DNA of 64,000 nt from an uncultured Hormoscilla sp. (GCA_963921275.4 OZ001293.3:4352001-4416000), one strand, 5' to 3'; counted from the first letter of the stretch, positions 1,518 through 63,361 are shown. Notes: generated by a model not told the origin, from the sequence alone. Numbers and translations: made by a program.

Positions 1518-4500
1518 TTGCTCTTTGGCAAATTCCTGTGCGTTTTCACCACCAAAAAACACCCCTTGGTTATCTTTTTGGATGACTTACAGTGGGCGGA
1601 TTCGGCGTCGTTGAATCTGCTGAAGCTGCTGATGAACGAGCCTGCGTCGGGCTATTTGTTGGTGCTGGGAGCTTATCGGGATAATGAGGTGTTTCCGGCA
1701 TATCCGTTGATACTGGCACTTGATGAAATTGTGAAACAAGGTACACAACTCAATAGGTTGACCTTGGCGACCTTGGGTCAGCCCGACATTACCCGTTTGA
1801 TAGCGGATACGCTGCTGTGTTCGCCTGAAATTGCGGTGCCGCTCTCGCGGTTGCTGTACCAAAAGACACAGGGCAATCCCTTCTTCTTCACAACGCAGTT
1901 TTTGCAGGGATTGCATGAGGATGGTTGCATTGTCTTTGATGTTGGGGCGGACTATTGGCAATGCGACTTGGCGCAGGTGCGGCAGTTGGCGCTGACGGAT
2001 GATGTGGTGGAATTTATGGTGGGGCGGTTGCGGAAGCTGCCGGAAGTAACACAGGAGGTTTTGAAGCTGGCGGCGTGCATTGGCAAGTTTCGATGTGGAG
2101 ACGTTGGCGATGGTCTGCGATCGCGGTCGGGATGAGGTGGCGGCTTCTTTGTGGCGAGGGTTACAAGAGGGTTTGGTGGTTCCCGAGAGCGAGACATACA
2201 AGTTTTTCCAGCCCGGATCTCGGGAAGTTAAAGAGATTAAAGAGGTTTCGGTTGGCTATCGCTTTTTGCACGATCGGATTCAGCAGGCTTCCTACTCACT
2301 TGTTCCCTCGGAAGACAGGCCAATCATCCACTTTATAATTGCTGAAACCATAAGAATTTCTAAATCTTCAACTGTATTAGATGGCATGATTTTCGATGTC
2401 GTAAATCACTACAATCAAGCAAATATTGACAGCCTAGATACAGAGAAAGCTTGGCAGGTTGTCAAGCTTTCTCTTCGGGCGGGCAGAAAAGCCAAGTCGG
2501 CAACAGCATTCGATGCTGCCAGCGACTACTTTAACATGGCATTAGCTCAGATAGCCAATCTGGACGAGGGAGCTTGGGAGACTCGCTACGAGCTGATGTT
2601 CGAGCTGCATGTTGATATTATTAAGGCAAAAATTGCTGGTGCCTGCTGGAATGAAGCCGAGCAAAAAAGTAAGATAATCTACGAAAAAAGTAGAGACAGA
2701 CTCGACCGAGCGATTAGCCTACAGTTGTTGATCGAACAAAGTGCTCAAAGAGGAGAATTCGAGAAGGCGATCGAACAGGGGCGCCAAGCACTAGGTCTTT
2801 TAGATGAGGAGATTCCCGAGACAGATATCGAAGGAAAACTTGAGGAGCTAATTGTCGATATCCGACAGCGATGTCTCCCGGGTTTTCGCCGTGCGTCCGG
2901 GAGACATCGAAAGAAAAAAACCATAGTAGAACTGAGCGAAGATCGAACCAAAGTGTTAGAGGACAGGCGCTTACAGAAAATTTTGGCAATCTTCAGCGTT
3001 CTTGATGCACCTACTTACCTTGTACGTCCGGATATTTGGAAGTTTATCAATGGTCGAAGCGTCCAGATTACTCTGGCATACGGTGTCGCTCCAGAAAGTC
3101 CAGCAGGACAGGTTCGCTTGGGGCAGATTTTATGCGGCAGGTTAGATGGAAGCTATGCCGAAGGGTTTGTCTTGGGTCAGAGCGCAATGGCGCTCAGCGA
3201 TCCTTACCCCGAACAAAAGTGCATTGTCTGCTTTGAAATGGGCTTAGCGATTAATCATTGGATGAAGCCACTTCGTGAGAATATCGATTTCTTTCGGTTA
3301 GGATTTCAGGCGGCACTCGAATCGGGAATCCTGCTGTACGCTGGCTATAACTTAATGTTCGAGTCATATTATCTTCATTACACAGGCCAAGAAATATCGG
3401 AAAACCTTTCTACTACCGAAGAGTATCTCAGATTTTCAGAACGCACGAAGAACAGCTTAGCGACAGTTTTGCTGAAAGGGATTTCCATTCATCTCGAGCG
3501 ATTGCAAGCGCAAACGGACTGTGGCACATGGCGGGATAAGCTTCTCAAGCCATCTCCGAAGAAATCTCTCTCGATGCCTTGCTCTCTAAATTGATGCAAG
3601 TTATTCTCGAAAACGCCGGGGCCGACCTTGGCTCCTTAATCTTAAACCACTCCGGCACATGGGTTCTTGCCGCCCAATGCCTTAAGGGCAACACTCACCT
3701 ATCGACTACCCCCCTCGACAATGCCGACACCCTGCCCTTGAGCATTATCAACACCGTCAAACGCAGCCAACAAACTCTCCTCATCAACGACATCGACCAA
3801 GACACCAGCTTCCCTGGGGATACTTATTTAATACAACAGCAACCCAAAAGTTTGTTATGCACCCCCATCGGACACCAAGGCTAACTTATAGGCATCCTCT
3901 ACCTGGAAAATAACCTGGCAGCAGGAGCTTTCACCTCAGACCGCATCGAAGTCCTCAACCTCCTGACTGCCCAAGGGGCCATCTCCATCGAAAACGCCCA
4001 ACTGTACAACACCCTCGAACAAAAAGTCCAACAGCGCACCGCCGAACTTTCTGATGCTCTCGAAGACCTCAAAGCCACCCAAAAACAACTGGTAGAGTCG
4101 GAAAAAATGGCGGCTTTGGGAGGGCTAGTTGCCGGAGTTGCCCACGAAATCAACACCCCTCTGGGCACCAGCATCACCGTGGCCTCCACCCTAGCCGAGG
4201 AAACCCAAAGCTTTCTCAAAGCTGTCAAGCAAGGACAACTCAAACGTTCCGTTCTCAACAACTATCTAGACCTAGCGTCCGAAAGCACGCAACTGATGCT
4301 GAGCAACTTGGCAAGGGCCGGAGAATTAATCGGCAGCTTCAAACAAATTGCTACAGACCAAAGCAACCTGGAACAGCGACGCTTTCACCTCAAACAATAC
4401 CTCTGTGAAGTGGCCCTGAGTTTGACTCCCCAACTCAAACAGACTCCCCATACTCTCACCATAGAAGGGTCTGAGGACATTACCATTGAAAGCTATCCGA

Positions 4501-5852
4501 GGGCCTTGGCTCAATTGCGACCAATTTAGTCACCAACTCCCTAACTCATGGGTATCCATCGGGAGAGGTAGGACAATTGCGCTTTGACATCCGCCGAGAA
4601 GAGGATAAGCTACAGATAGAGTACGCAGATGATGAGTGCGGGATTGAACCGGAGAATAAGGACAAAATATTCGAGCCGTTTTTCACAACCGCTAGGCATA
4701 AGGGTGGAACGGGATTGGGACTGCATATAGTATATAACTCAAGTTGCGACCTATAAAAATTGGATACAAAAAGCTATGATAAAGAGAATTATTTTCAACT
4801 CTAATCCCTTAGATGTAACAGCATGAATTGACTTGGGAAACAAATTGGTGATTCGACTAAAACAGGTTTAAACTTGTTTTCTTATTACTTTTTGTATATA
4901 TTCAAAACAAGAATATTCTTTTCTTTTTGAGTTCTTTTTTCGCAAAGGTTTTAACATTATACTTGACGACTCTTTTAGTAAATCCTCTAATTGATAATCA
5001 TTATAAGCTTTATCTCCATAAACTATTGAATTTGATGGTAAGTCAAAGCCAAAAGATTGCAAAACTTTAAAATCATTATAACTACCAGGATCTAGATAAA
5101 ATTCTATTGGCTTTCCATTTTTGTTTACCAACATATGAACTCTTAATCCATAAAAATAACGTTTTTTACTGGCAATATACCCTCGATATTCTTCCTTGTT
5201 ATAAATTTGGCATCTATCAATCCTAATATTATCACATACTGGCACCGGGAAACTATCAAGAATATATTCTTGACCCGGATTGAGCTCTTTAAATGTTTGA
5301 GCTATAACTTGGAAGAAAAACATCCAAATTGGTTCCTCAATATTGTGTAATCGACGATTGAACCTACTTTTACTTAACAGATTTTTTATATACTTGTGTT
5401 GGACCATAAATTGACAAGAGCGATCGTGGTGTCCTCCGAAAAAATATGCAGCAACTAATCCGACTGTCATCACTTCGGCATTGTTCATTTTTACTTGTGG
5501 ATCTTCTTTTATATTTAACGCTTTTAGTAGCTCGTCACAAAGAACAAAAATTGTTGTAATCATATCTTCCATCATCTACATCCCCCAGCAATTAACTATT
5601 ATTTTAGTACATTATAACCTATAAACAGCCAACCCGCCGTCTAGCACAAAAAAAATATAATTTTGTATTAAAAGCTACGAAATATCCCAAATATCTGTAA
5701 AGTCTAAGTGGGTAATTCATATTTTTTTTAATAGGTCGCAACTTAGGTTATATAATTTAGTGACGCAGAAGTTGCTGAGGACAATAGAGGTTCGCAGTGA
5801 GGTGGGTGTGGGCACAAGATTTATTATGACCCTGCCGAGGTCTGTTAATTAA
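1518..5852 (+). pseudogene. Multi-domain AAA-ATPase / GAF / sensor histidine kinase, fragmented
   Basis: HPLVIFLDDLQWAD, KTQGNPFF, YRFLHDRIQQA, GAF (LSKLMQVILENAGA), H-box VAHEINTPL, and HATPase GTGLGLHIVYNLVT split by IS982. Spread over at least 5 ORF pieces and 5'-truncated. Confidence 0.85.
4737..5748 (-). mobile_element. IS982-family insertion sequence (transposase 5575..4868 with premature stop)
   Basis: Terminal IRs ACTCAAGTTGCGACCTAT / ATAGGTCGCAACTTAGGT; 6-bp direct repeat TATATA at 4731-4736 and 5749-5754; motifs ILDSFPVPVC, YFYGLRVH, YGDKAY; AT-rich. Confidence 0.9.
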
Positions 5853-5861
5853 GAGGTTATT

Positions 5862-7324
5862 ATGAAGGGGATTAAACCAAACATGACACTCGATAACAAT
5901 AAAAACTCCCTGACTGTGGCTGAAGATGATGACCAACTTTTACTCCTAGAAGATGACGAACTCATTATTCTAGAAGAGTCAGAAGTTGTCCCCTTGGTTG
6001 AAGATGATGACAACCCATCTGTACAGATAGAACTTTGAAAAATGATGATTGTCGATGATGACCCCGGGGTTCATAAAGCCACTCAATTAGCCTTGAAAAA
6101 CTTTGTTTTTGACGGCAGGTCTCTCTCGTTCATCCAGGCATTTTCCGGGTCCCAAGCCCAGCAGTTAATCTCAGGGCATCCCGATATTGCCTTCATGCTG
6201 CTGGATGTGGTGATGGAAAGCAATGATGCTGGCTTAAAGGTGGTTCGCTATATTCGCGAGGATCTGAAGAATAAGCGAGTGCAGATTATTTTGCGGACGG
6301 GTCAACCTGGGGAAGCCCGGAAGAGTCAGTCATCCGCAAGTACGAGATTAACGACTACAAACTGAAGGTCGAACTGACCCGACAGCGGTTGATTACCACC
6401 ACGATCGCGGCCCTGCGAGCCTACCGGAATGTGCTCGCTGTCGAAGAAAAAACTGCACAGCTCATCCAAACCTTAAAAACCTTGCAGCAAACTCAACTTC
6501 AACTGGTGCAAAGCGAAAAAATGTCGGCCTTGGGGAATTTAGTGGCTGGGGTGGCCCACGAAATTAACAATCCTCTGAGTTGTATATCGGGAAATATGGT
6601 TCATGTCACAGATTCTATCCAAGAATTACTGAAGATTATTGGACTCTACCAACAGCATTATCCCAATCCGGCCACTAAGATTAAAGAAGAAATAGAAGCG
6701 ATATATCTTGAATTTATCGGTGAAGATATACCCAAAATGCTAGAGTCTATGAATCTCGAGGTAGAGCGCATTCACAATATTAGTAAGAGTCTGCGGACTT
6801 TGGCACGCACGGATCGAGAGCAGAAGAATACATTCAATATCCATGAGGGGATTGATAGCAGTTTACTTATCCTCAAGCATCGCACCAAAGCCAAGAAGCA
6901 ACGCCCCGCTATTCAAATTATCAAAAACTATGAATACATTCCCGAATTGCAATGCTTTCCAGGTTAACTGAATCAGGTCTTTATGAATATTTTAGCTAAC
7001 GCTATAGATGCCTTGGAGGAGGCGAATAAAGGTAAAACCTATACAGAGATAGAGATAGAACTGAATCAGATTACTATTCGCACTTTTATCCTTGACGAGA
7101 CTCACGTAAAAATCAAGATTCAAGACAATGGTTGCGGGATGAAACCCGAGATATTAGGCCAGATTTTTGAGCAGGGTTTTACGACCAAAGCGATGGGTAA
7201 AGGTACAGGACTAGGAATGGCGATCGCGCACCAAATAATCACAGAAAAACACGGCGGTATGATTACCTGTGATTCTACAGTCGGACAAGGCACAACCTTT
7301 ATGATCGCGCTCCCGATTGTGTAA
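5862..7324 (+). pseudogene. Response regulator receiver-histidine kinase hybrid, fragmented
   Basis: REC (MIVDDDPGVH, LLDVVME, ILRTGQPG), H-box VAHEINNPL, HATPase GKGTGLGMAIAHQII; stops or frameshifts near 6038, 6320 and 6965. Confidence 0.85.
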
Positions 7325-7430
7325 AATCTTGCTGCTATTGTATTATTTGGGTCAGGGGGCGATCGCCCCCTGACCCAGGAAGCGGTTTCCCTGGCCCATC
7401 GGTGCATCCAACCCCTGTACTTTGTGCTGC

Positions 7431-7540
7431 ATGGCTGCGCCACGCTACGCGAATGGCTGCGCCACGCTACGCGAATGGCTGCGCCACGCTACGCGAATGG
7501 CTGCGCCACGCTACGCGAATGGCTGCGCCACGCTACGCGA
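7431..7540 (+). repeat. Five perfect tandem copies of the 22-bp short dispersed repeat ATGGCTGCGCCACGCTACGCGA
   Basis: Read directly. The same unit occurs singly at 19639, 30773, 31063 and as a reverse-strand variant at 46757. Confidence 0.95.
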
Positions 7541-7585
7541 ACGGAAGTTAGCTGCCATGCTATGGATCGATAGGATATGATGGGG

Positions 7586-8506: not shown

Positions 8507-8578
<72 letters not shown>

Positions 8579-9391: not shown

Positions 9392-11204
9392 TTAATGATA
9401 TATATTAGCAGCCTTGATCATGTGATAGGTAATCAGCAGCTGAGTGATAGCCAGAGGGTAACTTTGGAGAATCTCCCCAGTTGTACCCGTCAGCTTACCA
9501 ATATCTTCATTACCTTGCAAACTACAGAATTTTCCTAGGTAAGGAACCTCGTTACAGAGGATCCGTTCCAGTTCCCTCACCTGTTCCTTGGTAGCATGAC
9601 CATCAATTTCCAGCACATCCACCGGTTTACCCATATCCCTGTCCAGTTCCAGGCGGATAGCAGAACTAAGATGACCTTTATCGGGGTCGAGAACGGGAGT
9701 CCAGTCCGGGTGAGGGATAGTCGGGCGGAGTACCAGACGTACATTCAGGAGTAAATCACTTGCTTGGGAGTTATCGCTGGGAGGGTAGAAAGAGACCACA
9801 ATATCGGACTACTGGCGCTGAGGACGGATAAACTGTTCCGAGTCTGGTTCCCGCTTGCGCAATTGTTCCAGGACCTGTTCATTACTATAGCCCCGCTTAC
9901 GAGTATCCCGCTTAACTTTCCACTCAGTACGCAGAGATTCCGGCGGGGCCAGATATACCTTGACATCGTAGCAGTCCCGAGCCCCCCGGGTATAGTAACC
10001 CAGCAAACCCTCAACAATGACAAACTTTTGGGGTTTGTGCGATTCGTTCTAGCCTAACGTGGTCAAACACGGAACGCTAGCCCGGTTTCATTAGCCGGGA
10101 ACTCTGACCGCATGGGGGTTAAATTCCCCTCCCCCCAGGTACGGGGGTGACACCGGTCCTCGGTGCTACGAAGCGACATCATCGTGGTGCTAAGCGAGGA
10201 CTCAAATGTAGGATAACTGGCAGCCTAAGCCGGTGACGCCGCTAGGAAAGATATCCAAGGTTAGAGCAGGCAAACATGTGCAAGCCTCGTTATAAGGAAC
10301 CAGCGAAATAAGGCTATATGCGCTGGCCTAAAAAGGAAATGGTAGCTAGTATTAGTTTTAGACTCTGGCTAATATAGTACTCAAATAGCTCCCGGGGTAT
10401 AGTGTGGACCTAAAGGTATCGCGAAATGTTATTAGGGAACGAAGTAACCTCTCGTGTGCTGTCCATCAGGACAAGTTAGATGTTAAGCGCAAGCCACGGG
10501 GGGAGGGATGGCCCAAGAAGCGAATGCCCGGGGTAATTCCTGGGATAACATCTACAGTAATGTAGATAATGCTGGGTAGCCAGCGCTGACGTGGGTCGGT
10601 GATACTAGGAAGCTGCTGGAATGAGTAATCCTAAAAAGCCACGGAACTAATCCGAAACGCAAGTGGAGGATAAGGTATGGATAACTGGTAAAACTGACTT
10701 GAAAATGGTGATACTAACGGTTATCAGAACAACCACTCGCTAAACCAGGAAAGGGAAGAAAAGACAGGCGGCAAGGGCTAACGGAAGTAATTCCTATTAA
10801 GTCTACCTATGAAAAGGGCCTAGTACCCAGTAGCCGGATGCGGTGAAAATCGCAAGTCCGGTTCCGAAAGGGAGGGTCGGGAAGCGATTCCCGGCTCGAC
10901 CCCATCCAATGTATTCGGGCGGGTCAAAGGTGCCAGTGTGGTGATTGTAAATCGGTTTGAGGATTGATTGTCCAGTGCGGAGCAGATTCAGGTGCTGCTG
11001 AATGATATCTAAGTAATTGCAGTCCGGGTGGAGGGCGGAGATGCCGATTTGAGCGCGTTGGGTCCAGTCATAGCGATGATAATCATCTATACAGATCACC
11101 GTCACATTCTCTTCACCCAACACCTGAGCAATACCGCGAGTGAGGGTTGTCTTGCCAGCGGCGCTATCACCGACAATACCAAGGATAATAGGGCGATTAG
11201 GCAT
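9392..11204 (-). pseudogene. Phosphoribulokinase/uridine kinase family gene interrupted by an antisense group II intron, plus a nonsense codon at 9809-9811
   Basis: GIVGDSAAGKTT, CIDDYHRYD, YNHHTGTFDPPEYI | KPQKFVIVEGL, WKVKRD. Halves rejoin in frame when 10037-10907 is removed. Confidence 0.88.
10037..10907 (+). mobile_element. ORF-less group II intron (IIB/chloroplast-like), copy A, 871 nt
   Basis: 5' GTGCG; domain V TAGCCGGATGCGGTGAAAATCGCAAGTCCGGTTC with AGC triad and GAAA loop; domain VI hairpin with bulged A at 10899; putative EBS1 AGACTC (10360-10365) complementary to upstream exon GGGTTT; no RT ORF. Confidence 0.92.
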
Positions 11205-11344
11205 AATGCTTATTTCTCCTAGTTGAGCAAATTCTAGGGAGGACTATAGAGTTAGCTGATTCCGATTACTAGATTTTGCAGATGCAATCTCCAGCTTTTA
11301 AGAATTTCTTTATTCTATCGCAACCGTTCGTGCTTCCGTTTGTA

Positions 11345-11505
11345 GTAAGAGCACTTCGATGCACTCGGGGCGCTCGATGCTTCCCAGGAGCGCTATTCGC
11401 ACTACCCGGGAGACATCGTACTCGCACTACCCCTCCCACATCGAAGCGTGCTTCACCCCTGTTTGCCAGCGAGCGCTCCCAGGCAGGACAAGTCCTACAT
11501 GTGAC
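11345..11505. repeat. Mosaic of short dispersed repeat modules
   Basis: Shares CCCAGG, CACTACCC, GAGACATCG and CATCGAAG modules with 7586-7726, 15736-15817 and 54568-54633. Confidence 0.5.
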
Positions 11506-11512
11506 CAAATAA

Positions 11513-11584
11513 TGGGCGGTACTGGATTTGAACCAGTGACATCTTGCTTGTAAGGCAAGCGCTCTACCGCTGAGCTAACCGCCC
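11513..11584 (-). tRNA. trnV: tRNA-Val(TAC)
   Basis: 72-nt cloverleaf GGGCGGTTAGCTCAGCGGTAGAGCG-CTTGC-CT-TAC-AA-GCAAG...GGTTCAAATCC...CGCCCA. Confidence 0.95.
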
Positions 11585-11653
11585 AACTCAACTTTATCTA
11601 TCATAACCTGATAAAATCCAGAATGTCAAGAGTTCGATCAAAAATTTTTTCTG

Positions 11654-12238
11654 ATGCCCGCTGGCCACACCCACGATCGCATTATCCTTTGGACATTGCC
11701 AGCAGTTACAGGTCTAGTTTTTCTGCTGACGGGGGGTAATAGCGAGTTAGCCTTATTAGTAGCGACAGGATATTTCTTCAGTGGCCTGATGTTGAGTCCT
11801 GATTTGGATCTGCGATCGCGTCCCTTTCACCGGTGGGGATGGTTCAAGTGGATCTGGGTGCCATACCAGAAGGCCATGGGGCACCGGTCTATTTTCTCAC
11901 ACGGTCCCATTATTGGCACCACCCTCAGAGTAGTTTATCTCGCTTGCTGGTTGTCTCTGGTAGTAATTCTCGGTTTAGCGCTGGTGCGCTTATTCTCCGA
12001 TCGCCCTTCCAGTTTACCCCGCTTCCTGCCCCAGCTGGGCCGAGCGCTCTGGAGCTACCGGTGGCAAGCAAGCGCCTTTCTCCTGGGTTTAGAACTGGGT
12101 GCCCTCAGCCATATTATCAGCGATTATACTGTCTCAACCTATAAAAAGTATAAAAAGTCGAATAGAAAACCATTGCCAGCTTCGGGACGAAAAAAGCGTC
12201 AATCCCCCAGCATGCGCAAAGGGCGCCAGCGCAAGTAA
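11654..12238 (+). CDS. Metal-binding membrane protein (DUF2227-like)
   Basis: MPAGHTHDRI, LSPDLD, W..YQK..GHRS.FSHGP..GT.LR, GALSH..SD motifs. Confidence 0.8.
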   Translation: MPAGHTHDRIILWTLPAVTGLVFLLTGGNSELALLVATGYFFSGLMLSPDLDLRSRPFHRWGWFKWIWVPYQKAMGHRSIFSHGPIIGTTLRVVYLACWLSLVVILGLALVRLFSDRPSSLPRFLPQLGRALWSYRWQASAFLLGLELGALSHIISDYTVSTYKKYKKSNRKPLPASGRKKRQSPSMRKGRQRK

Positions 12239-12656
12239 CGCCGATATCCGTTATAAATTTATGTAAAAATTGGTAACAAATAATACAAAAATTTGCAAAT
12301 TTTTGGGATGATAGCAGCCAATGGTTGAAAATTGCACTTTGGCACTTTGGCTAATTGAAAAGAGTAAATCCATCTATTCATGACAAGATTATGATTATCG
12401 AGATTAACCTTTGAGTATTAGCCATTAGCAGCCATTATCATCCTGTGCAACCCCTAATAAAAAACTGTGATTAATGCATAATTGTGACGAATAGCAAGTA
12501 TAGGTAAATAGAGCACAGATCGAAGAGAACGGTGTGCGAAGATACATCCGGAGGGCGATCGCGGGACTGGAAATAAGATAAAAGCAGGGCTCTAAAACTG
12601 GCCCAGATGCGTCAAGAACAAAGGTAGACCCGATCGGGTGATAATAGGAGAAAGAG

Positions 12657-12968
12657 ATGGAAACTCAAGAAACTCAAATAACTCAAGCTCTGCGGGCGAT
12701 CGCGACCAAAACAATATGGTTCTATGTAACGGGAATGGTAGCATTGAGCATGATTTTTGGTCCAACAGCGATGAAAAGCGGGCTGCTGCCGATTACAATA
12801 GTAGCAGGGGCAGCAGGTGGCACGGCAGCAGTATGGCGATCGCCCGATCTCCAGTCCCAGAAAAAGCTAGAGGGCGTTGCACATTTTCGGGATGATGGGT
12901 TAATGCATATTATTATAATCGGCAATTTTACAGGAAAAATTTATGGCGTTGCACTTCGGACGGGATGA
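12657..12968 (+). CDS. Small hypothetical membrane protein, 3' end overwritten by IS/MITE sequence
   Basis: RBS-like AGGAG upstream and two hydrophobic segments. After about 12871 the ORF reads into GGCGTTGCAC...GGGATGATG element ends. Confidence 0.45.
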   Translation: METQETQITQALRAIATKTIWFYVTGMVALSMIFGPTAMKSGLLPITIVAGAAGGTAAVWRSPDLQSQKKLEGVAHFRDDGLMHIIIIGNFTGKIYGVALRTG

Positions 12969-13055
12969 TGAGCATAGTTGCAATAGTTTTAAACCTAGAC
13001 TACAAGCGACTTTCAGTTATGTGCAAAAAGAGTATCATCCCCTCTGTGCAACGCC
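12945..13055. mobile_element. 111-bp MITE
   Basis: IR GGCGTTGCAC...GGGATGAT / ATCATCCC...GTGCAACGCC; 8-bp direct repeat AAATTTAT at 12937-12944 and 13056-13063; a second left end at about 12873. Confidence 0.8.
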
Positions 13056-13064
13056 AAATTTATA

Positions 13065-13440
13065 AGGGTCTCCTGTACTTATAGTGATAAGTTTTTCTTA
13101 TCAAAGAAGCAAGCTAATACACGCGAACGGAAGTTTTCAAAGTTTGTAAATCCGTAGGCTTGACGTTTAATTAACTTAATCTTATTGTTAATTCCTTCCA
13201 TCACTTGTTGCATGACTAATAAAATAATTACAAATTCCCTCCCTGTGGATCTTGACAGGGGTGATAACATATTAAATCACCCCTGTCAAGATCCACAGCC
13301 AGGTGACTGTCAATCATCTGAGCAGACTTCTGATAAAATAACTTAGCATAAATTAACCATTTTTCTAATTTTTGTTTAGCTGACTTCAACCTCTTGCTGG
13401 TTTCATAGATAGTACGAAGTTCTTCTTTTAGTTGATAGGC
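13065..13440 (-). pseudogene. ISL3-family transposase C-terminal remnant
   Basis: KEELRTIYETS...HLEGICNYF...MEGINNKIKLIKRQAYGFTNFENFRSR. Confidence 0.8.
13243..13298. repeat. 56-bp perfect hairpin mini-element
   Basis: 23-bp perfect inverted repeat CTGTGGATCTTGACAGGGGTGAT, 10-nt loop, flanked by CC on both sides. Confidence 0.85.
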
Positions 13441-13637
13441 AATAGCGATCGCAAGGATATTTTGCTAAAATTACTTCTAGTTTTTCCTGAGCTTCTTTAT
13501 CAAGAGCGGCACCATTATTTAATAATAAATATTTACTGCCTTACAATACTCAAATGGCATGACAAAGAAAAAAGATTCTCGTTCGACGCAATCACCGGTA
13601 CAAAGGAAAAGTAGGGATTCGATCTTTTCAGGGCATG

Positions 13638-13800
13638 GGAGCGCCTGCGCTTACCTCGGTTTCTTTTTGGCGGACAGCAAAAAATTATTTCGCTAGGACT
13701 GCGAGACAATCCCACGAACCGAGAGCAAGCGGAATTTAAAGCGAGGGCGATAGAGCTCGACTAAGACTTGGGCGATTTCGACCAGACGCTGAACCGCTAC
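13638..13800 (+). pseudogene. Arm DNA-binding domain (DUF3596-like) of a tyrosine integrase, remnant
   Basis: RLRLPRFLFGGQQKIISLGLRDNPTNREQAEFKARAIELD*DLGDFDQTLNRY. Confidence 0.65.
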
Positions 13801-14687
13801 GGACTAACGAAGAAACTTCGCTCTAACCTGATGACGGCAAGGTTGTACCCAGTTTCACTAGCAGGGCTATAGGAAATATACATATACTCTCGTCAAGATC
13901 TGGTGAAACCAAGTACCTGGGTAATCAGCTACCAGAGGACTCTGAAACGACTTCAGCAATCGCCGTTTTCCGATCTGACAGCAGAACTGACTTCCGACCA
14001 AGCCTATCAGGTTTACCATTGGGCGATCGCTAACTGGGCTCCCGATGTCGCTCACAAACTCAGTAACTGCTCACCGCAATAGAGACAGCTTATTGAAAAT
14101 ATCTAGCTCGCCTTGCGAGCATTTCTGTTTTCATTACAGGGGGAAACACCGCCCTGAGATTGTGCTCACCCGACCACGCAAAGACCCTTGCATCGGGATG
14201 TAAGCTTAAAAGGCCATAGCACAGCGCCCACTTTTGCACACCAAGTGACTTATTTTCCCTCCAGAGGGTGTATACTAGAGCGTCGGTCCAGTAGAGGGGG
14301 TTGACAAAAAAAAGAAAATGTGCATATACTATCTCGCCGATCCAGTGGAACAGATTTTGGGTAAGAAGAAAATGAGGTCCAGAGGGAGTGAAGGCCAGAG
14401 GGAGGTACGAGAATATATATATTTTCCGTCTATACACAGTAGTTGAAATTTGTCAAGTATTATTAATGGACCGACGCTCTAGCTAGTATGATCTTTACTG
14501 CTGCACCACAAGCCGAGCCCCTGACCTTCACCATCTCAGCAGACGAGATGGTGAGTCGAGTGATGCTAGTCGAGTGGATGGTCAAGCAGCAGCAACTACT
14601 CAAACAACAGGTAAAAAGCGCGGTCCCAAATATAATCACTCTGGAAAGACACGCAATGGATTTGGAGTGCCAGACCACATAGAACAG

Positions 14688-16104
14688 CTCTCAGTACAGG
14701 ACAAAACTCTGAAACCCATACAGATCAAGGATTTTATTTTCAAACAAGGATTTTATTTTCAAACCTTGACAGGGAGAAGCTACCTATGATATGATATATT
14801 ATATTATGTACTCATACTCGACCAAACATCGCTCTCGCTAATTATGAATCACATTGATATACTGTCACAAGAATTAAAACAAATTTTTGAATGGCATGGC
14901 GCAAGAATTAATTGTTTGGCTAATTTTTTAATAGCTTTATTTAAAGTAAAAACAGTCAATCTGGCACAAATTGCGACAGCTTTTTCGAGACTGGCTCAAA
15001 CAGATTCTCATTACAAACATCTACAAAGGTTTTTTAAATTTTTCACTCTCAATGAGTCTAAACATGCTCAATTGATCGTCAAGCTTATATGTAACAGTAA
15101 AAAATGGATACTTACATTAGATAGAACCAACTGGTTGTATGGAAAGAAAAATATAAATATATTGACTTTAGGAATTGCTCATGAAGGAATAGCATTTCCA
15201 ATTTTATTTGACTAGCAAAAAAGGAAATTATAATACTGAAGAAAGAAAAAATATCATCCTGCCTGAATATTTTGGGAACAGATAGAATTGATTATTTAAC
15301 GGGCGATCGGGAATTAGTTTGGTAAAGAATGGTTCGATTTCCTTTTGAATAAAAAAATATCATTTAGAATCAGGATCAGAAAAACAGATCAGGTGGCTAA
15401 CAGTCGAGGATAACTTGTAGCAACTCAAACATTATTCCGTGACTTAAAAGCTAATGAATCCATTGTTTTAGAACAAAAAAGAGCGGTTTGGGGAAATCCT
15501 CTTTATGTTGCAGGGTTAAGGCTTCCAGATGGAGAATTATTAATTGTAGTATCTCCGGATTCTCCAAAAACAATTATAGAAGATTATGGGCGGAGATGGG
15601 AAATTAAAACCTTATTTGGCTGCTTGAAAACTCGTGGTTTTAACCTAGAATCAACTCATATGACTGAACCAGAAAAAATAAAAAAAATGGTAGCTTTATT
15701 GGCTATTGCTTTATGTTGGGCACATCAATTGGGAGTCGGTGTATCCTGGGTAGTGCGATCGCGCAGGACACTTATCCCGGTGCGCGCAGGGCATGTAGCG
15801 CTCCCAGGATACACCGAAGTTTTACATGAACAAAAACCTATCAAAAAACATGGTCGTCAAGCAAAGAATTTGTTTCCTTATAGATTTGACTGAGAAATGT
15901 TTTATTTAATCTTGATGAAAAACAGGAATAATATCTTAATATATTGGCAATATATTTTGAAGCAATAACATGTTAAAATTCATCAATATGTCATAAATTT
16001 TAATTTAAATTTATAACCGAATTTATTATTATTAACATCGGCTAAAATTTATATTCCAGCAACGCCAAAAACACATGAAGTAAAGTTTTGTCCTGTACTG
16101 AGAG
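14688..16104 (+). mobile_element. IS4-family insertion sequence with degraded transposase (14844 to about 15893)
   Basis: 21-bp IR CTCTCAGTACAGGACAAAACT / AGTTTTGTCCTGTACTGAGAG; motifs LTLDRTNW, NILTLGI, Y..RWEI..LF..LKTRGFNLESTH; several stops and frameshifts. Confidence 0.85.
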
Positions 16105-17779
16105 ATCGCGGTACTTGATTCGGAAGGTGGATCGAGCGATCGCTACGCAGATCTTTTCGACTTTGATGTACTCGACCTTAGCACTCCCAGCTTGACGAAC
16201 TACATCAACGCGATTGAAGCGGCAGGGGTTGAAGGTTACGACATTTGCATTATCGATAGCCTCAGCCACGCCTGGCAATCGACCTTAGAATTCGTCGATC
16301 GCTTTTCCAACAAGATGCTGGGATGGGCAAAAGTCAATCCCGAGCTTGGGAAACTAAGGAATGCCATCCTTCAGAGTCCCTGCCACGTCATTGCCACCTT
16401 CCGCTCAAAGACTGAATGGGCGATCGAGCATGACGGGGGGAAAGCCAAGCCGAGAAAACTGGGTATGGTTCCAGTCTTTCGCGATGGCATCGAATAGGAA
16501 TTTGACATCTTTGGGGAAATTAACGAGCGAGTCTTGTCAATCTCCAAATCTCGCTGTCCCGAACTTCAAGGGATGACTTTCTCTTCTCCAGGAGCAAATA
16601 TAGCTGGATGGGGTCGAGCCGGGAATCGCTTCCCGACCCTCCCTTGAGGAACCGGACTTGCGATTTTCACCGCATCCGGCTACTGGGTACTAGGCCCTTT
16701 TCATAGGTAGACTTAATAGGAATTACTTCCGTTAGCCCTTGCCGCCTGTCTTTTCTTCCCTTTCCTGGTTTAGCGAGTGGTTGTTCTGATAACCGTTAGT
16801 ATCACCATTTTCAAGTCAGTTTTACCAGTTATCCATACCTTATCCTCCACTTGCGTTTCGGATTAGTTCCGTGGCTTTTTAGGATTACTCATTCCAGCAG
16901 CTTCCTAGTATCACCGACCCACGTCAGCGCTGGCTACCCAGCATCATCTACATTACTGTAGATGTTATCCCAGGAATTACCCCGGGCATTCGCTTCTTGG
17001 GCCATCCCTCCCCCCGTGGCTTGCGCTTAACATCTAACTTGTCCTGATGGACAGCACACGAGAGGTTACTTCGTTCCCTAACAACATTTCGCGATACCTT
17101 TAGGTCCACACTATACCCCGGGAGCTATTTGAGTACTATATTAGCCAGAGTCTAAAACTAATACTAGCTACCATTTCCTTTTTAGGCCAGCGCATATAGC
17201 CTTATTTCGCTGGTTCCTTATAACGAGGCTTGCACATGTTTGCCTGCTCTAACCTTGGATATCTTTCCTAGCGGCGTCACCGGCTTAGGCTGCCAGTTAT
17301 CCTACATTTGAGTCCTCGCTTAGCACCACGATGATGTCGCTTCGTAGCACCGAGGACCGGTGTCACCCCCGTACCTGGGGGGAGGGGAATTTAACCCCCA
17401 TGCGGTCAGAGTTCCCGGCTAATGAAACCGGGCTAGCGTTCCGTGTTTGACCACGTTAGGCTAGAACGAATCGCACAATCTCCTAAAGGATTGGCTCGGC
17501 CCAGAAAGCGATCGCCTGCCAGCTCCAGCGACCGCTCCAGTATTTTCACAACCTCAAGATCAAATTTGGCGTCAGTGGAAAAACCCCAAGATGGCGATGG
17601 ACTGGGCTTGTAAAAAGCTGCCGACATATGAAAGGAGCGAAATCAAAAAGCTGTTTGACAATATGCCAACAGATCTCGACGGCAAAAAAGCTCCCGTCTG
17701 GCAATCATATATTGAGAGCTTGATGGACTCAGAGAAGACCGAAACGAAACTGGATCAACCACAAACCTTAGCTATGTAG
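16105..17779 (+). pseudogene. Phage-type AAA ATPase (AAA_24 / Sak4-like), 5'-truncated by IS4 and interrupted by an antisense group II intron
   Basis: IAVLDSEGGS, IIDSLSHAW, SPCHVIATFRSKTEW, RDGIE*EFD; PGANIA|NLLKDWL rejoins in frame when 16606-17476 is removed. Confidence 0.75.
16606..17476 (-). mobile_element. ORF-less group II intron, copy B, 871 nt
   Basis: Reverse complement of 10037-10907 with only a few substitutions; same GTGCG start and domains V and VI. Confidence 0.92.
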
Positions 17780-18122: not shown

Positions 18123-18780
18123 ATGAATCAAGCACTCAAAAATTTTGTTCTATCTGCTGATTTTGGGAACTACGAACTGAAATTATAGGACGGCTCTCGG
18201 ACTCGCTCCATTCGCTCGATTCAATTTCGATTACCCCAAGGACGGCAGCCTTTACAAGGAAAGCCCAACAGTCCTGTGCTCGAATACCAAGGAAAAACCT
18301 GGCATATCGGATTCAAAGCCTACGAATACAGGAAAACGTATCACTTTGTCGAAGGAGACTTGTCTAAGGAAGTTCTGCTGGCAATGCTCGCTTGTTGCGA
18401 GTTTCCCGCCAAAGAATTTAAGCTTACCGTTCGGACCTCTCACCCTACGCCATCTTTGGCTGCGGACAGCATCAAAAGTCGGTTACAGGGTTGTCACCGA
18501 TTTTCCAGGAATGGCCACCATTGCATCGTTCATGTTGAGGACGTAACTGTAGAACCCGAAGGATTGGGAGCTTGGCGGTACGCCAAAAAACAAGGTTTAA
18601 TCCCCGACCAGGGCTATACGGTTGTAATCGACATTGGCGGAGGTACTTGGCTTAGTCGCCTGTTCAATCCCTCTGGTGACATTATCGATCAATCTGTTGA
18701 CGAGCGCGGCGGCGGTTACGACCTGGCGACCTCGATCAGCTTTGACGATCGCTACAAAACGCGCTCGGGAAGCGCCGGTA
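18123..18780 (+). pseudogene. ParM/StbA-like actin-fold partition ATPase
   Basis: SADFGNYELK* (stop at 18186), VEPEGLGAW, VVIDIGGGTW actin phosphate loops; C-terminus lost. Confidence 0.75.
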
Positions 18781-19173
18781 CCTATACCAAGGTGTTCCCC
18801 GGCGTGAAATCACTCCTAGGGATGCCCGGCAGTTCTCGAACCTGGCTAAAGAAACCCAGCAGCAGGTTGATCTGCGGCAGCAAGCCTATCAGTTCTTAGC
18901 TAAGGCTGCGATCGGGCAACTGACAGCCGACAAGCTTTACCTGGAAATCCAGCAACTGCTAACCCAGATTCAAGTCCAGCAGGGCATTCTAACTGCCGAC
19001 CATCGTGCATTTCTCAGCGGGCAGCGCCTAGATCTGACATCCAAGCAGTACGAGGTAAAGGCATTGCTAGCAGCGGACGCCGATCGGGAAAAGCAAATCA
19101 AAGCCAGCTTTTCTCACAGGCTAGCCCCGGCAGCAACTACAGTCTCGGCGGTCTCGGTTGAGGAGGTGGAGGA

Positions 19174-19396: not shown

Positions 19397-20150
19397 ATGA
19401 AGCAACTAAGCTACAAAACCGACCCCTATCTGTCCCTGAAGTTGGGAGGAGCTTTGACGACTGCAATGATTGCGGCAGTAGTGTCAGCGGGAATGCCAGA
19501 GAGCAAAAGTCTAGCCGAGCTAACCAATTGGGAAAAGACTTTGAAGACGATCGGGGCTGGCTCAGCGCTCGCAGCTTCTGTGGGGGTTGCTGCAGCTTGT
19601 ATCAAAGACGAATCGCGATCGCTCGTGACTGATTGCGCATGGCTGCGCCACGCTACGCGATCGGGAGATTAGCGACCAGATGACCGTGACCCTGGCGCAA
19701 TCTACAGCAGCTTATTTTCGCAATTATCCTTTGGCTTGGAAGATGGGGCTAGACGTCCCCAATCGCTGGCATGAAGTCTATGCTTTAACGGGAGGCTACA
19801 GCGAAAAGCTTCCCGCGCTAATGGCAAGCGATCGCCCCGTAGTGGAAATTGCCGCCTCTGCGATTGACACTAAACCCTCACCAGTGCTAGTTCCCAGGCG
19901 AACAATTGCTCAAGAAGCAGTCGCGCAGATTACCCGCCCTGAATATCAGGATTTAACAGACATGGAATTTCTCAATCACATATAAGATTCTGATTATAGT
20001 TGGATTGACGCGCTAGTTATCTACCCAACTGTCTTGATTTTTTGTGCTTTTGGAAGCGGGAAAACATCCTTTGCCCTTCATCTGATCAGCAAACCCCTGG
20101 CGCTGAAACACACGGTTATTGCTCTATATCCACGATGCGGATGGTAGCAG
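19397..20150 (+). pseudogene. Membrane-anchored P-loop ATPase fragments
   Basis: Two TM helices, then a frame break at the 22-bp repeat (19639-19660), then degenerate Walker A (CAFGSGKTS) at about 20045. Confidence 0.4.
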
Positions 20151-30314: not shown

Positions 30315-30794
30315 AATATCCATAGCAATATTGCTCATCTCTGCATTTTATACCATACTCCTATCTGGCTGCACCAATCTGGATTTCCCGATGCCGATGT
30401 ATACACCGATACATTGGACGATATTGTACCAGTGACCAGTTATCAGCTATCGGCTACCACAACCCTTGACCCGCGCGATCGCTGCACTTTTGAGCTGTAC
30501 CCCCTGGCAATGTTAATTTTTATGTACAAAAGTCACAGCATATTAATATAATAATTTCTATGACAATCTTGGCGCAGTCCAAGAGAAGAAGGAACATCGA
30601 GTCCGTGGGTGCTTGAATTCACAACAGCCTTTGCCAGTGGTGCTACACTTACTACCACGACATTGCCAGGACCCAGGGAATGCGCTGCGCGCACGCTACG
30701 CGAATGGCTACGCCACGCTGCGCGAACGGAAAATGAGCAAGATATTCTCCAACTCTTACTCCTCACTCGCACATGGCTGCGCCACGCTACGCGA

Positions 30795-31152
30795 TCTGAC
30801 CTTTCCTGCTAACTCCTCAAACGCTTACTCCATCTAGCATAGGATCATTTCAGGGTAGGGTTCAGAAGGTCACTTCGGTGTTTGGAGATACAAAGTTGCT
30901 TAAAAGAGCTTATGAATTTTTCGCTCTTCACAAAGTGACATTTAATTCACTGACACAACCTCAGATAATTACTCAAGAATGTAATACGTTACCTGTGATT
31001 TTATCGGTAGGTGACATTACCTATCTTGACTATAAAGCAATAAGAGCAAAAACGGAATGGCTATGGCTGCGCCACGCTACGCGATCAGACCGATTGCGAA
31101 TGGTGGTCAAGGACTCATATTACATACTAGCATAGCTGTTGAGCCCACAGAC
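30795..31152 (+). pseudogene. IS4/IS50-like transposase N-terminal remnant, host of the outer intron
   Basis: KRAYEFF, ILSVGDITYLDY, GQGLILHTSIAVEP. Confidence 0.65.
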
Positions 31153-32457
<1,305 letters not shown>

Positions 32458-37176: not shown

Positions 37177-38937
37177 TTGCCAAACGGTTTAACCATTAAC
37201 TCCACTACTGGGGTGATCAGCGGCACTCCTACTACTGATGGCAGTTTTACCGTGACGGTAACAGCAACGGATAGGGCGGGAGGCCGGGGAGAGGATGAAT
37301 TTAATATTACAGTATCGCGTCCCACTAGCTTCACCCTTTCTGATAGTTTCGCTCTCAATGGCAACTTTACCAATTTGTACATCGGTGACTTTAATGGGGA
37401 CAATTATGATGATATCCTCCGTCAAGAAAAGGGCAGTTGGTCCAACGACGATGCCTATCGGACTGCTGAAGTCCTCTTATCCCAAGGTAACGGCAACTTT
37501 ACCCGCACCACCCTTCCTGATAGTTTCGCTCTCAATGGCAACTTTACCAATTTGTATGTCGGTGACTTTAATGGGGACAATCATGATGATATCCTCCGTC
37601 AAGAAAAGGGCAGTTGGTCCAACGAGGATGCCGTAAGGACTGCTGACGTCCTTTTATTCCAAGGTAACGGCAACTTTACCCGCACCACCCTTCCTGAGAG
37701 TTTCGAGCTCAATGGCAACTTTACCAATTTGTATGTCGATGACTTTAATGGAGACGGGAAAAGCGATATCCTCCGTCAAGAAAAGGGCAGTTGGTCCAAC
37801 GACGATGCCTATCGGACTGCTGAAGTCCTCTTATCCCAAGGTAACGGCAACTTTACCCGCACCACCCTTCCTGAGAGTTTCGAGCTCAATGGCAACTTTA
37901 CCAATTTGTATGTCGGTGACTTTAATGGAGACGGGAAAAGCGATATCCTCCGTCAAGAAAAAAGCAGTTGGTCCAACGAGGATGCCGTAAGGACTGCTGA
38001 AGTCCTCTTATCCCAAGGTAACGGCAACTTTACCCGCACCACCCTTCCTGATAGTTTCGCTCTCAAGGGCGACTTTACCAATTTGTATGTCGGTGACTTT
38101 AATGGAGACGGGAAAAGCGATATCCTCCGTCAAGAAAAGGGCGATTGGGATAACGATGGCATTCGGACTGCTGAAGTCCTCTTATCCCAAGGTAACGGCA
38201 ACTTTACCCGCACCACCCTTCCTGAGAGTTTCGATCTCAAGGGCGACTTGACCAAGTTGTATATAGAAGATTTGGATGGTGATGGCCGAGATGAGATTCT
38301 GGTTCAAAAAAAATCGGCCCAAGGGGATCTGTCCCGCGTCCTGAAGGTATTGTCCTCAAATGATGGGCGCAATTTTACCGAATCTCTGCTCCCTTCTGCG
38401 CTTCAGTTTTCCAGTCAAAGCGGGCAACTGTATATTGCCGATTACTCCGGCAGTGGGCAAAACAATGATGTTCTGGTTCAGGGTTCTGGACACCAAGCGC
38501 TGCTAGGCAGCATTACCCTGGGGAGCAATGACTACCTTCAAGGGGGAACAGGAAACGATTCCCTCAATGGGGGTAACGGAAACGACTGGATTCGCGGATA
38601 CGGGGGCGACGATACCCTTTTAGGGGGCAGCGATAACGATACTCTCTATGGCGACGAGGGAGAGGATATTCTCAATGGGGGTAAGGGGCACGACATGCTT
38701 TACGGCAATTCCGGTAGTGATACTTTTGTCTTGGCCCGGGGCATGGGCGGGGATACCATCCAGGACTTTTCAGATGGTACGGACTTTATCCGGTTAGAAG
38801 GAGGTTTGAGTTTTGCTGATTTAGGAATTGATTCTCAGAACGGTTCGACTTCTATTAAGGTCAGTGCTTCTGGGGAACTGTTGGGGATTTTGTCGGGAGT
38901 TGATTCTAGTCTTATTGGTGCTTCTGATTTTGTTTAG
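37177..38937 (+). CDS. Putative-Ig + FG-GAP/VCBS repeat + RTX calcium-binding protein, 5'-truncated
   Basis: LPNGLTINSTTGVISGTP, five near-identical 177-bp repeats (GDFNGDGKSDIL), GGxGND nonapeptides, DTIQDF T1SS-type tail; no natural ATG. Confidence 0.85.
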   Translation: MPNGLTINSTTGVISGTPTTDGSFTVTVTATDRAGGRGEDEFNITVSRPTSFTLSDSFALNGNFTNLYIGDFNGDNYDDILRQEKGSWSNDDAYRTAEVLLSQGNGNFTRTTLPDSFALNGNFTNLYVGDFNGDNHDDILRQEKGSWSNEDAVRTADVLLFQGNGNFTRTTLPESFELNGNFTNLYVDDFNGDGKSDILRQEKGSWSNDDAYRTAEVLLSQGNGNFTRTTLPESFELNGNFTNLYVGDFNGDGKSDILRQEKSSWSNEDAVRTAEVLLSQGNGNFTRTTLPDSFALKGDFTNLYVGDFNGDGKSDILRQEKGDWDNDGIRTAEVLLSQGNGNFTRTTLPESFDLKGDLTKLYIEDLDGDGRDEILVQKKSAQGDLSRVLKVLSSNDGRNFTESLLPSALQFSSQSGQLYIADYSGSGQNNDVLVQGSGHQALLGSITLGSNDYLQGGTGNDSLNGGNGNDWIRGYGGDDTLLGGSDNDTLYGDEGEDILNGGKGHDMLYGNSGSDTFVLARGMGGDTIQDFSDGTDFIRLEGGLSFADLGIDSQNGSTSIKVSASGELLGILSGVDSSLIGASDFV

Positions 38938-39207
38938 TTACGGTAAGGCTGTTGTTTTCCCTGGGGGGCCTTTGACTGCTATTGGGGTGTGGTCTTGCGC
39001 CCGTTGGTAGGAGACAGTAGCCGGGCCAGTGAAGGGCCGGGTCTGTCCTATGGTAAAGCAGGAAATGTTACCAATGTCGCCGGTAACCAACACTTGAGTT
39101 ATAATAAACAAACGTGCCACTCGTTCCGGCGTAAGTCAGAAATATGACGATAGTCGGGCTAGTATTACACCAGCACCTCTACAGAAAAATACAAGAGAAA
39201 CCAAAAA

Positions 39208-42335: not shown

Positions 42336-42497
42336 CAAAAGAAAATTTACCCTGCTGCTAGTCGTGACACCGTCACTGCTATGATGAAAAGACAACCAAA
42401 GATGAAAATCTAGGTACTAAGCAAGCGGAAATAGTGCCTCGCGCGAACCCGTTAAAACAGGGAAGCAGTGCCCATGACTTGGGTAACGTGTCGCCTC

Positions 42498-42915
42498 CTG
42501 TGGATTATTTTAATCTCTATAACGATACCTACGGTCATCAAGCTGAAGATAATTGTTTGCGGGCAGTTGCCCGGGCTATTAACATAAATCTCAAGCGGCC
42601 AGGAGATTTAGCTGATCGTTATGGCGGGGAAGGATTTGCTGTCATTCTACCGCAAACGGATCTTTATGGAGCACAGCATATCGCCAAAATTATCGGGTCA
42701 GAGATCCAACAACTGAAGATTCCCCATGCATTGTGAGTGAATATGTTACCATGAGTATGGGTATTTCTAGTACCTTTCCCCATCATAAACTTTACAAAAA
42801 AGACCTAGTAGCTGCTGCGGATAAACCCCTTTATCAAGCAAAAGCTAAAGGTCGTAATACCTACTGTTTTCACTCTTTAGGAGAATTGCGAATGGCTGAA
42901 CGGGCAATCAACTAA
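42498..42915 (+). pseudogene. Diguanylate cyclase (GGDEF) remnant
   Basis: VDYFNLYNDTYGH, RYGGEGFAVILP, VTMSMG, ADKPLYQAKAKGRN; truncated and frameshifted. Confidence 0.85.
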
Positions 42916-45836: not shown

Positions 45837-46392
45837 TCTTATTCCTTTGGTGAATAACTAGAATCAAAATTCTATCTATTAGCTGAAATTGCCAATGACA
45901 CAAATATCAAATCATCACGGTGACACGAGACATAAGTTTTTGTTGAGTAGCGTAGCGTGTTGCCGCTTAACTCAACCTACAGTATTATAGCTGTTATAGC
46001 TAATCATCCGGACTTGATAAGTAGGTCTGCAAAGGTAGAACTGAATCATGTAAAATTTTGTAATTTTGGTGAAAAGGGCTCTATGCTTCTCCCAGAAAGA
46101 GGTTCAGCTATATTAACATTCCAACTTCAACTAACCGCGCAGCGTTGCGAGGCATGAAGCAATCTCGAACCGCGCGCGTTGCGAGGCACGAAGCAATATC
46201 GAACTACTTATTACCGAGTGTGGTCAAAACTCGTTGGTACTCGGCCTCGCCGCCCGAACCCGTGCATGGTCCGGCTACTTCACAACATTGCCCGCCCTTC
46301 GGCTAACGCAGCGCGGGCTATATTACATGCATCTGAGATGCACCCGACTATCAACTACAAGTGAGTGTACCCAATCTAACCGGTGCCCCACT

Positions 46393-46571
46393 GTTGGGGT
46401 TTAAAACCTCTCGGTTGGGGTTTTCAACCTCTCGGTTGGGGTTTTCAACCTCTCGGCTGGGGTTTAAAACCTCTCGGTTGGGGTTTTCAACCTCTCGGTT
46501 AGGGTTTAAAACCTCTCGGTTGGGGTTTTCAACCTCTCGGTTGGGGTTTAAAACCTCTCGGCTGGGGTTTT
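46393..46571. repeat. 21-bp tandem array, 8.5 units of GTTGGGGTTT(AA/TC)AACCTCTCG
   Basis: Read directly; two alternating variants, each a small hairpin, no spacers. Confidence 0.9.
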
Positions 46572-46782
46572 ATGTGTGGTATTGCGCCCGTTGGTAACCG
46601 TTCACAGTTCCCTGTGAAGAGTTTCCCACTAATACAACTACTTTTGACCACACCCCTTATTACCTGTCTTAAAATAGGCGAGATACCTGTTGGAATAAAC
46701 TGTCCGCAGAGCCTCAGTTATCGTTCCTAGGCAGAGCCTAGGAACGATAGCACCGATCGCGCAGCGTGGCGCAGCCATAGCT

Positions 46783-62880: not shown

Positions 62881-62923
62881 TATGACGACAGCTTAAGTCC
62901 TGCCCTTAATATCGGCACTCTCT

Positions 62924-63016
62924 GCGCGACTCTGCGTTAAAGTCGCGCGACTCTGCGTTAAAGTCGCGCAACTCTGCGTTAAAGTCGCGCGACTCTGCGT
63001 TAAAGTCGCGCGACTT
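62924..63016. repeat. 21-bp tandem repeat GCGCGACTCTGCGTTAAAGTC, 4 units plus a partial
   Basis: Read directly; intergenic, after the transporter stop. Confidence 0.9.
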
Positions 63017-63361
63017 TGCCATAGAATCACGTGACTAATTTCTCAATCAATGTGACTTTAATCTAGATATGTAGCCCGCTGGCGCGGGCCCTCTCGACTT
63101 TGAAAAGGTTTGAGCAGGAACTTCTAGAGATGGGAGTCAAGGAACTGATTTAAGTAGATCCCCTCAGGGAAAAATTAGCAGATTGCGGTGAAGTAGTTAT
63201 TAGGGGAGTTACCTTCCCCGCCAGCCCCCAAGCAAGGGAAAAAGTAAAAAGAGGAAAGAAAATGATTCCAGAACTAGCGAAGCAACTATGTCTGTCAAAA
63301 AACGTCCGAATAGGGGGTGATGGAGGTGAAAAAAAAGTAGAAAGTAAAAGGAGGAAAGAAA

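Follow-up and report, generated by a model that had tools for sequence, protein, structure and literature searches.

Why do two almost identical sequences of 871 nt lie inside two unrelated genes, each directed against the gene that it breaks? This question is raised by a 64,000-nt stretch of DNA from an uncultured Hormoscilla sp. (GCA_963921275.4, OZ001293.3:4352001-4416000). The whole stretch is referred to below as the window, and positions are counted from its first letter. The two sequences, copies A and B, interrupt a phosphoribulokinase (PRK)-family gene and an AAA_24 ATPase gene, respectively. They very probably represent two recent insertions of one group II intron devoid of an open reading frame (ORF), with IIB-like exon recognition through exon-binding site (EBS) 1 and possibly EBS3. 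The element itself, its ends and direction, the conserved ribozyme fold, the pairing of EBS1 with the exon and the lack of an internal ORF are shown by the analysis; the recency of the insertions, a reverse transcriptase (RT) acting in trans and the retrohoming route are points that we infer.

Intron copies in the window

Three copies of the intron were located:

10037-10907 (+): copy A, ORF-less group II intron, 871 nt, 5' end GUGCG and 3' end ...ACCCCAUCC (RF00029)
16606-17476 (-): copy B, ORF-less group II intron, 871 nt (alignment to A, RF00029)
31392-32225 (+): copy C, diverged ORF-less relative, 834 nt (RF00029, alignment to A)

Copies A and B have the same length and are identical at 867 of 871 positions in a gap-free alignment. 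The differences are located at intron positions 395 (A in copy A, G in copy B), 532 (A/G) and 830-831 (GA/TC). In the repeat search A and B came out as an inverted repeat spanning 884 nt (10025-10908 / 16605-17488), the similarity extending into the exons by 12 bases at the 5' end and by one base at the 3' end; outside this 12-nt target the flanks are unrelated. Neither a target-site duplication nor terminal inverted repeats were found in the flanks of A and B.

According to the analysis with the RF00029 covariance model (domains V and VI), the score was 46.4 bits for A (10829-10905, +), 44.4 bits for B (16608-16684, -) and 47.0 bits for C (32147-32224), all above the gathering score of 40. 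The longest stop-to-stop frame wholly within the intron comprises 58 codons, and four intron-internal frames matched no Pfam family at E <= 1. The first-pass annotation of the window had described near-identical copies of a group II intron with domains V and VI, without an RT ORF and at unrelated sites; all of this is borne out for A and B, and copy C had been missed.

Copy C shares 72.7% identity with A over 872 alignment columns. It is placed in a repeat-rich spacer without a recognisable gene, between minus-strand genes, and its flanking frames matched no Pfam family. Besides A, B and C, no further copies or fragments of the intron were revealed in the window by sensitive blastn (word size 7).

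Interrupted genes and intron boundaries

The pieces of the two interrupted genes are as follows:

10908-11204 (-): 5' part of the PRK-family gene, codons 1-99 (NF005655 positions 4-102; 92% identical to P0002)
9392-10036 (-): 3' part of the PRK-family gene (NF005655 positions 103-177 and 179-317)
16102-16605 (+): 5' part of the AAA_24 ATPase gene (Pfam AAA_24 positions 55-141; aligned to P0122-P0126)
17477-17779 (+): AAA_24 gene, 3' part; 100 open codons before the stop (aligns to the C-terminus of P0122)

NF005655 is an NCBIfam profile of 326 positions. Excision of A joins ...PPEYI to KPQKFVIVEGL, in agreement with the intact orthologues, all four of which, as aligned, run ...EYIKP.KFVIVEGL... 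over the junction. Since the intact orthologues are continuous there, the PRK gene contains exactly 871 extra nucleotides. Compared with the closest orthologue, P0002, the three pieces of the gene show 92-95% identity and no frameshift. The aligned orthologues are 313-321 aa long; the conserved family, listed as 313-324 aa, is named phosphoribulokinase by the sources. The gene is assumed to be a paralogue and not the Calvin-cycle enzyme, because intact CO2-uptake genes are also present in the window.

In the second gene, excision of B joins ...SSPGANIA to NLLKDWLGPE, where the homologue P0122 has PGKDFAELLKTWI. This closest homologue is 64% identical to the query piece and aligns without gaps over the junction. 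Thus removal of 871 nt restores a minus-strand PRK gene around the plus-strand copy A and a plus-strand AAA_24 gene around the minus-strand copy B, and both introns are antisense to their hosts, as had been claimed.

The exact 3' end of the intron is set by the two restored reading frames. In copy A the family 3' end, ACCCC(A/G)(U/A)C(C/U), is located at 10903-10907, and it is found likewise in B and in three related introns described below (L026, L035 and L004). Group II introns usually terminate in 'AY'. Boundaries moved by 1-2 nt, which would give the canonical ...AU 3' end, were considered and rejected: Glu or Gly would then replace the Lys present in four of four orthologues, and the register of EBS1 pairing would be lost as well.

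As inverted repeats of 871 nt lying 5.7 kb apart, A and B also form a substrate for inversion of the intervening segment. A past inversion between them was rejected, both host genes being colinear across the introns.

In the surroundings of the PRK gene, two tRNA-Val genes (8507-8578, -, and 11512-11585, -; anticodons CAC and TAC) flank the radC and PRK genes, and 81-nt stretches of the two are 83% identical. Just upstream of the AAA_24 gene, fragments of an IS4-family transposase are found at 14844-15215 and 15624-15893 (+), corresponding to NF033591 positions 1-87 and 244-310, and a ParM-like ORF is located at 18276-18899. The region of approximately 12-20 kb looks like a decaying island of plasmid or phage origin.

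Members of the intron family

Relatives of the intron were sought by a contig scan with a degenerate and over-broad domain V pattern, which returned at least 94 stretches from many phyla, with flanks for 80 of them. Among the matches listed, no locus was more than 80% identical to A outside domains V and VI. The comparison of the intron with a plasmid collection (blastn, distant mode) gave no match. Relatives in Hormoscilla metagenome-assembled genomes were found at three loci (L035, L026 and L004), with partial copies at L049, L072 and L076. On sequence comparison, the intron belongs to a small family that includes copy C and these Hormoscilla relatives.

The Hormoscilla relatives resemble A and B in being ORF-less; in domain I and domains V-VI the identity is 70-79%. 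Also shared are the GUGCG 5' end, a 13-nt EBS1 loop and the ACCCC(A/G)(U/A)C(C/U) 3' end. The 5' GUGCG is present in all six aligned family members (A, B, C, L035, L026 and L004) and agrees with the GUGYG pattern. Four relatives have a readable context:

L004: between M48 peptidase and RRM genes; 1355 nt, with large insertions
L026: just downstream of psaF
L035: flanked by genes for LytR and ferrochelatase
L049: upstream of bacA

Unlike A and B, all four are located in spacers and are co-oriented with a neighbouring gene.

Ribozyme fold

The two 3'-terminal domains of copy A are placed as follows:

10832-10863 (+): domain V, with the AGC triad and a GAAA loop (RF00029 alignment)
10870-10902 (+): domain VI; its bulged A (10899) precedes the 3' end by 8 nt (RF00029)

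Domain V is invariant across four family members, and 6 of the 13 pairs of domain VI show compensatory changes. The consensus fold of A, C, L035 and L026 contains 201 pairs, 79 of them with compensatory changes on both sides; this fold was predicted from the same four sequences that were used to score it, and its helices are not mapped onto the canonical model. In this fold 97.2% of cells are paired, compared with at most 47.2% when the 3' partners were slid by 1-3 columns, and none of 500 column shuffles matched the observed pairing values.

Exon recognition and target sites

The elements considered in exon recognition, including the intron-binding sites (IBS) of the exons, are the following:

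10025-10036 (+): 5' exon target of A, CTTTTGGGGTTT; IBS1 is the last 6 nt, the putative IBS2 is CTTTT
17477-17488 (-): 5' exon target of B, CTTTAGGAGATT; EBS1 pairing 5/6
10360-10365 (+): EBS1 of A, AGACUC; intron positions 324-329, loop positions 5-10
10328-10336 (+): hairpin CCU-AAAA-AGG with the putative EBS2 CUAAAAAG; the stem covaries in relatives
10343 (+): U307, a candidate for EBS3; one bulged base at the bottom of the EBS1 stem

A 13-nt hairpin loop is found at the equivalent place in all six members. When the EBS1 of each was compared with its own last six exon bases, 33 of 36 pairs were formed: six in A, L035 (all Watson-Crick) and L004, and five in B, C and L026. The EBS1 of copy C is UGCACU. 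For 28 non-cognate combinations of EBS1 and exon the mean was 2.57 of 6, and 65 of 20000 permutations reached the cognate total. The pairing is also specific in register, with 33 pairs at shift 0 and 10-19 when the exon window was moved by 1-3 bases. The cognate pairing together with its register specificity therefore confirms both EBS1 and the 5' splice site, and AGACUC, assigned to EBS1 in the first-pass annotation, stands. The similarity of the 5' exons of A and B reported there also holds: 9 of 12 positions are identical (binomial P = 3.9e-4). The first base of the 3' exon is A in both cases.

As for EBS2, the proposed CUAAAAAG is upheld in part. It forms 5/5 pairs with the exons of A and B; the registers differ, and in the other four members at most 3/5 pairs are formed. 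The pairing in A and B uses stem bases of a hairpin that itself covaries, its stem being CCU/AGG in A and B and CCC/GGG, CCCC/GGGG or ACC/GGU in the relatives. In the column of U307, the five members with a 3' exon beginning in A have U, and L035, with a 3' exon beginning in T, has A. Five columns in all covary with the first exon base in this way, so U307 is a lead for EBS3 only.

A target motif derived from the EBS sequences, YTTTTNGRGTYT, has one perfect match in the window on both strands, namely the occupied site of A. Sites with one mismatch number 13, all of them empty; the 14 matches with no more than one mismatch do not exceed the chance mean of 12.7. The site of B differs from the motif at two positions, -8 and -3. 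The relaxed targeting that had been proposed seems unnecessary, with A at a perfect match and B two mismatches away. The siting of A and B resembles the ordinary retrohoming to cognate and near-cognate targets that is described for Thermosynechococcus elongatus (PMC2882425).

Consequences for the host genes

The mRNA of each host gene carries the complement of the intron, and therefore the intron cannot be spliced out. Both insertions are non-conditional disruptions. The same holds for targetrons inserted in antisense, whose transcripts are unspliceable, and this is the basis of non-conditional knock-outs (PMC3898094).

The description of the intron as a gene-inactivating mutagen is correct insofar as both insertions are disruptive. 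It is weakened by independent lesions in the hosts. In the PRK gene an in-frame TAG at 9809-9811 (-) replaces a Trp (TGG) that is present in four of four orthologues, and in the AAA_24 gene an in-frame TAG at 16495-16497 (+) replaces a Tyr of four of four homologues. In addition, the AAA_24 gene is truncated at its 5' end, lacking approximately the first 40 codons with the Walker A region. The presence of TAGs in both genes may be a coincidence or a mark of general gene decay in the region.

We give slightly less than an even chance to the view that the introns are passengers, which landed in genes already killed by point mutation or truncation and persist there without counter-selection. The TAG codons at conserved Trp and Tyr positions speak for this view, as does the state of the ATPase gene, which has lost its Walker A end and adjoins the IS4 transposase fragments; in T. 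elongatus, moreover, few introns are located within genes, which its authors ascribe to purifying selection (PMC2882425). The PRK gene speaks against it: inactivation there was recent, because the pieces are still 92-95% identical to the orthologue and contain no frameshift, and either lesion may have come first.

A further view seems doubtful, namely that the ORF-less lineage, whose relatives reside in spacers without doing harm and co-oriented with their neighbours, is now an active agent of gene loss in this genome and favours the strand opposite to transcription. If it were true, each intragenic insertion would be an unsplicable knock-out and the element would drive the formation of pseudogenes. 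An antisense preference might arise from lagging-strand priming at replication forks without endonuclease cleavage, and ORF-less introns across bacterial genomes have been reported to favour the lagging strand (PMC8919778). The opposite orientations of A and B at a distance of just 5.7 kb count against this mechanism. Copies opposing the local gene direction make up three of three in the window and none of four among the Hormoscilla relatives, and these numbers are far too small for a claim of orientation bias.

Origin of the two copies

For A and B as recent insertions, the following course of events is proposed. A master copy would be transcribed into intron RNA, which the RT/maturase of a related intron elsewhere in the genome would help to fold and splice. 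The RNA would then reverse-splice into a DNA strand at (C)UUU(U)-N-GRGUYU followed by A, and would be copied into DNA. The two sites used are on the non-coding strands of the PRK-family paralogue and of the AAA_24 gene in the decaying mobile-element region.

The four differences between A and B bear on the parent of the copies. At position 395, the A of copy A is mismatched opposite C72, and copy B has a C-G pair there. Between domains V and VI, B has UC in place of the GA seen in every other member. Position 532 is G in both B and C. Since A and B each carry changes of their own, neither is the unaltered parent, and judging from the sequences both probably derive from a third, master copy.

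Several observations weigh against this interpretation. The first is the lack of a visible donor of the intron-encoded protein (IEP) in the 64 kb examined. The first-pass annotation had regarded an RT supplied in trans as necessary and had pointed to a search for an RT/maturase donor; none is encoded within the window according to Pfam and tblastn. No RVT_1 or GIIM domain was present among the 50 ORFs scanned with Pfam (of the 64 ORFs with 110 aa or more, 43 were included, and 7 shorter ones were added; the remaining 21 mostly overlap a longer ORF and include a 3'-open frame at 63377). Six cyanobacterial intron-encoded ORFs, three of them confirmed as RVT_N/RVT_1/GIIM proteins and none from close relatives of this intron family, were compared with the whole window by tblastn; the best match (E = 0.003, 52 aa, 42368-42523) did not involve the RT domain. 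Secondly, tblastn revealed no trace of a lost ORF in the six family members and gave only short matches over domain V, with E >= 0.02. Thirdly, the 3' end ...AUCC extends two bases beyond the Rfam consensus ...AU. Fourthly, EBS2 pairing is unsupported in four of the six members. Finally, the sole Rfam match to domains I-IV is below the threshold (RF01999, 22 bits with a gathering score of 36), and therefore no structural class was assigned. The plastid domain V models also gave sub-threshold matches only (RF04356, 31.7 vs. 61 bits); taken with the candidate EBS3, these weak matches are suggestive of a IIB or chloroplast-like type.

The near-identity of A and B could also have been kept by gene conversion instead of reflecting recent insertion. 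More generally, it is quite improbable that DNA-level processes (conversion of old copies, or duplication) and not recent retromobility produced it. Inverted repeats of 871 nt at a distance of 5.7 kb would suit conversion, and no RT is visible in the window, but the shared sequence stops exactly at the intron boundaries plus the target that pairs with EBS1, both junctions restore the reading frames exactly, and conversion leaves unexplained how the intron arrived at two EBS-matching sites. That one copy is an assembly artefact, a collapsed or misplaced repeat, was raised in the first-pass annotation; nothing in the sequence speaks for it and it is hardly credible, as A and B differ at 4 positions, have unique flanks and split different genes, in each of which excision of 871 nt restores the orthologous protein sequence.

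Comparable systems

Compared by description and not by sequence, the closest described system to the recent insertion of an ORF-less intron proposed here is that of the TeI3 introns of T. elongatus, which lack an ORF. Their mobilisation in trans by IEPs of related introns was demonstrated experimentally, whereas for A and B it is inferred (Mohr, Ghanem and Lambowitz 2010, PMC2882425). Both systems are cyanobacterial, lack an IEP and include near-identical copies at several sites with flanks that pair with the EBS; in both, EBS sequences have diverged among the family members (PMC2882425). The differences concern several features. TeI3 introns retain recognisable remnants of both ends of the ORF, N-terminal and C-terminal, and no such remnants were detected in the family of A and B (PMC2882425). 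Most TeI3 copies are intergenic or located in other introns or insertion sequence (IS) elements, whereas two of the three copies in the window are antisense within genes; the accessible part of the TeI3 account makes no mention of antisense placement or orientation (PMC2882425). In addition, the ...AUCC 3' end sets A and B apart from TeI3. The ORF remnants are a trait of TeI3 and are unnecessary for mobilisation in trans.

Targetrons based on delta-ORF Ll.LtrB resemble what is proposed for A and B in that the ORF is deleted, the RT is supplied in trans and the sites are chosen by EBS/IBS pairing (PMC3898094). They are an engineered tool derived from a different intron, and the likeness is one of mechanism and not of family.

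In some cyanobacteria the genome contains over 100 group II introns, among them introns without an ORF (Miura et al. 2022, PMC8919778; Trichodesmium twintron paper, PMC4649490), and three copies in 64 kb would suit such intron-rich genomes. According to a review, ORF-less introns are rare in bacteria and are nearly always found alongside related IEP-encoding introns (PMC4424553). An open-access keyword search brought up no account of ORF-less cyanobacterial introns inserted naturally in antisense, which does not imply their absence from print.

Significance

Copies A and B are a real but fairly ordinary case, in which a known kind of mobile element breaks dispensable genes. Natural cases with ongoing mobility are the closest living models for the spread of spliceosomal-type introns through shared protein machinery. 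To these the window adds a small family with clean boundaries, an EBS1 backed by covariation and two fresh insertions whose targets differ at 3 of 12 positions. It also provides a natural example of antisense, non-splicable insertion, for which engineered targetrons are otherwise the main source of cases. In practical terms its value is modest: two pseudogenes are marked, a target motif is defined, and an 871-nt pair able to invert 5.7 kb is recorded.

Other observations in the window

A DDE transposase ORF (4868-5575, -) is surrounded by plus-strand pieces of a histidine kinase, namely HisKA at 4107-4529 and 6389-6967 and HATPase_c at 6983-7324. This arrangement suggests that the histidine-kinase gene at 4107-7324 was also broken by a mobile element.

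Copies of a 22-nt unit (ATGGCTGCGCCACGCTACGCGA-like), some in a tandem array and some scattered singly, are found at 7409-7566, 19617-19686, 30682-30798 and 31041-31088. The reverse complement of such a unit is inserted in the intron of the Hormoscilla locus L004, just upstream of domain V. The unit looks like a small dispersed repeat common to these cyanobacteria.

The region 37177-42065 (+) encodes large repeat proteins (FG-GAP, RTX nonapeptide, cadherin, He_PIG, LRR and DUF4347), the frames of which are split into three ORFs and contain internal tandem DNA repeats of 177, 72 and 300 nt. Arrays of 21-nt tandem repeats are located in spacers at 46365-46595 and 62903-63036. The first of these includes TTGGGGTTT-like units, among them a one-mismatch match to the intron target motif at 46391-46402.

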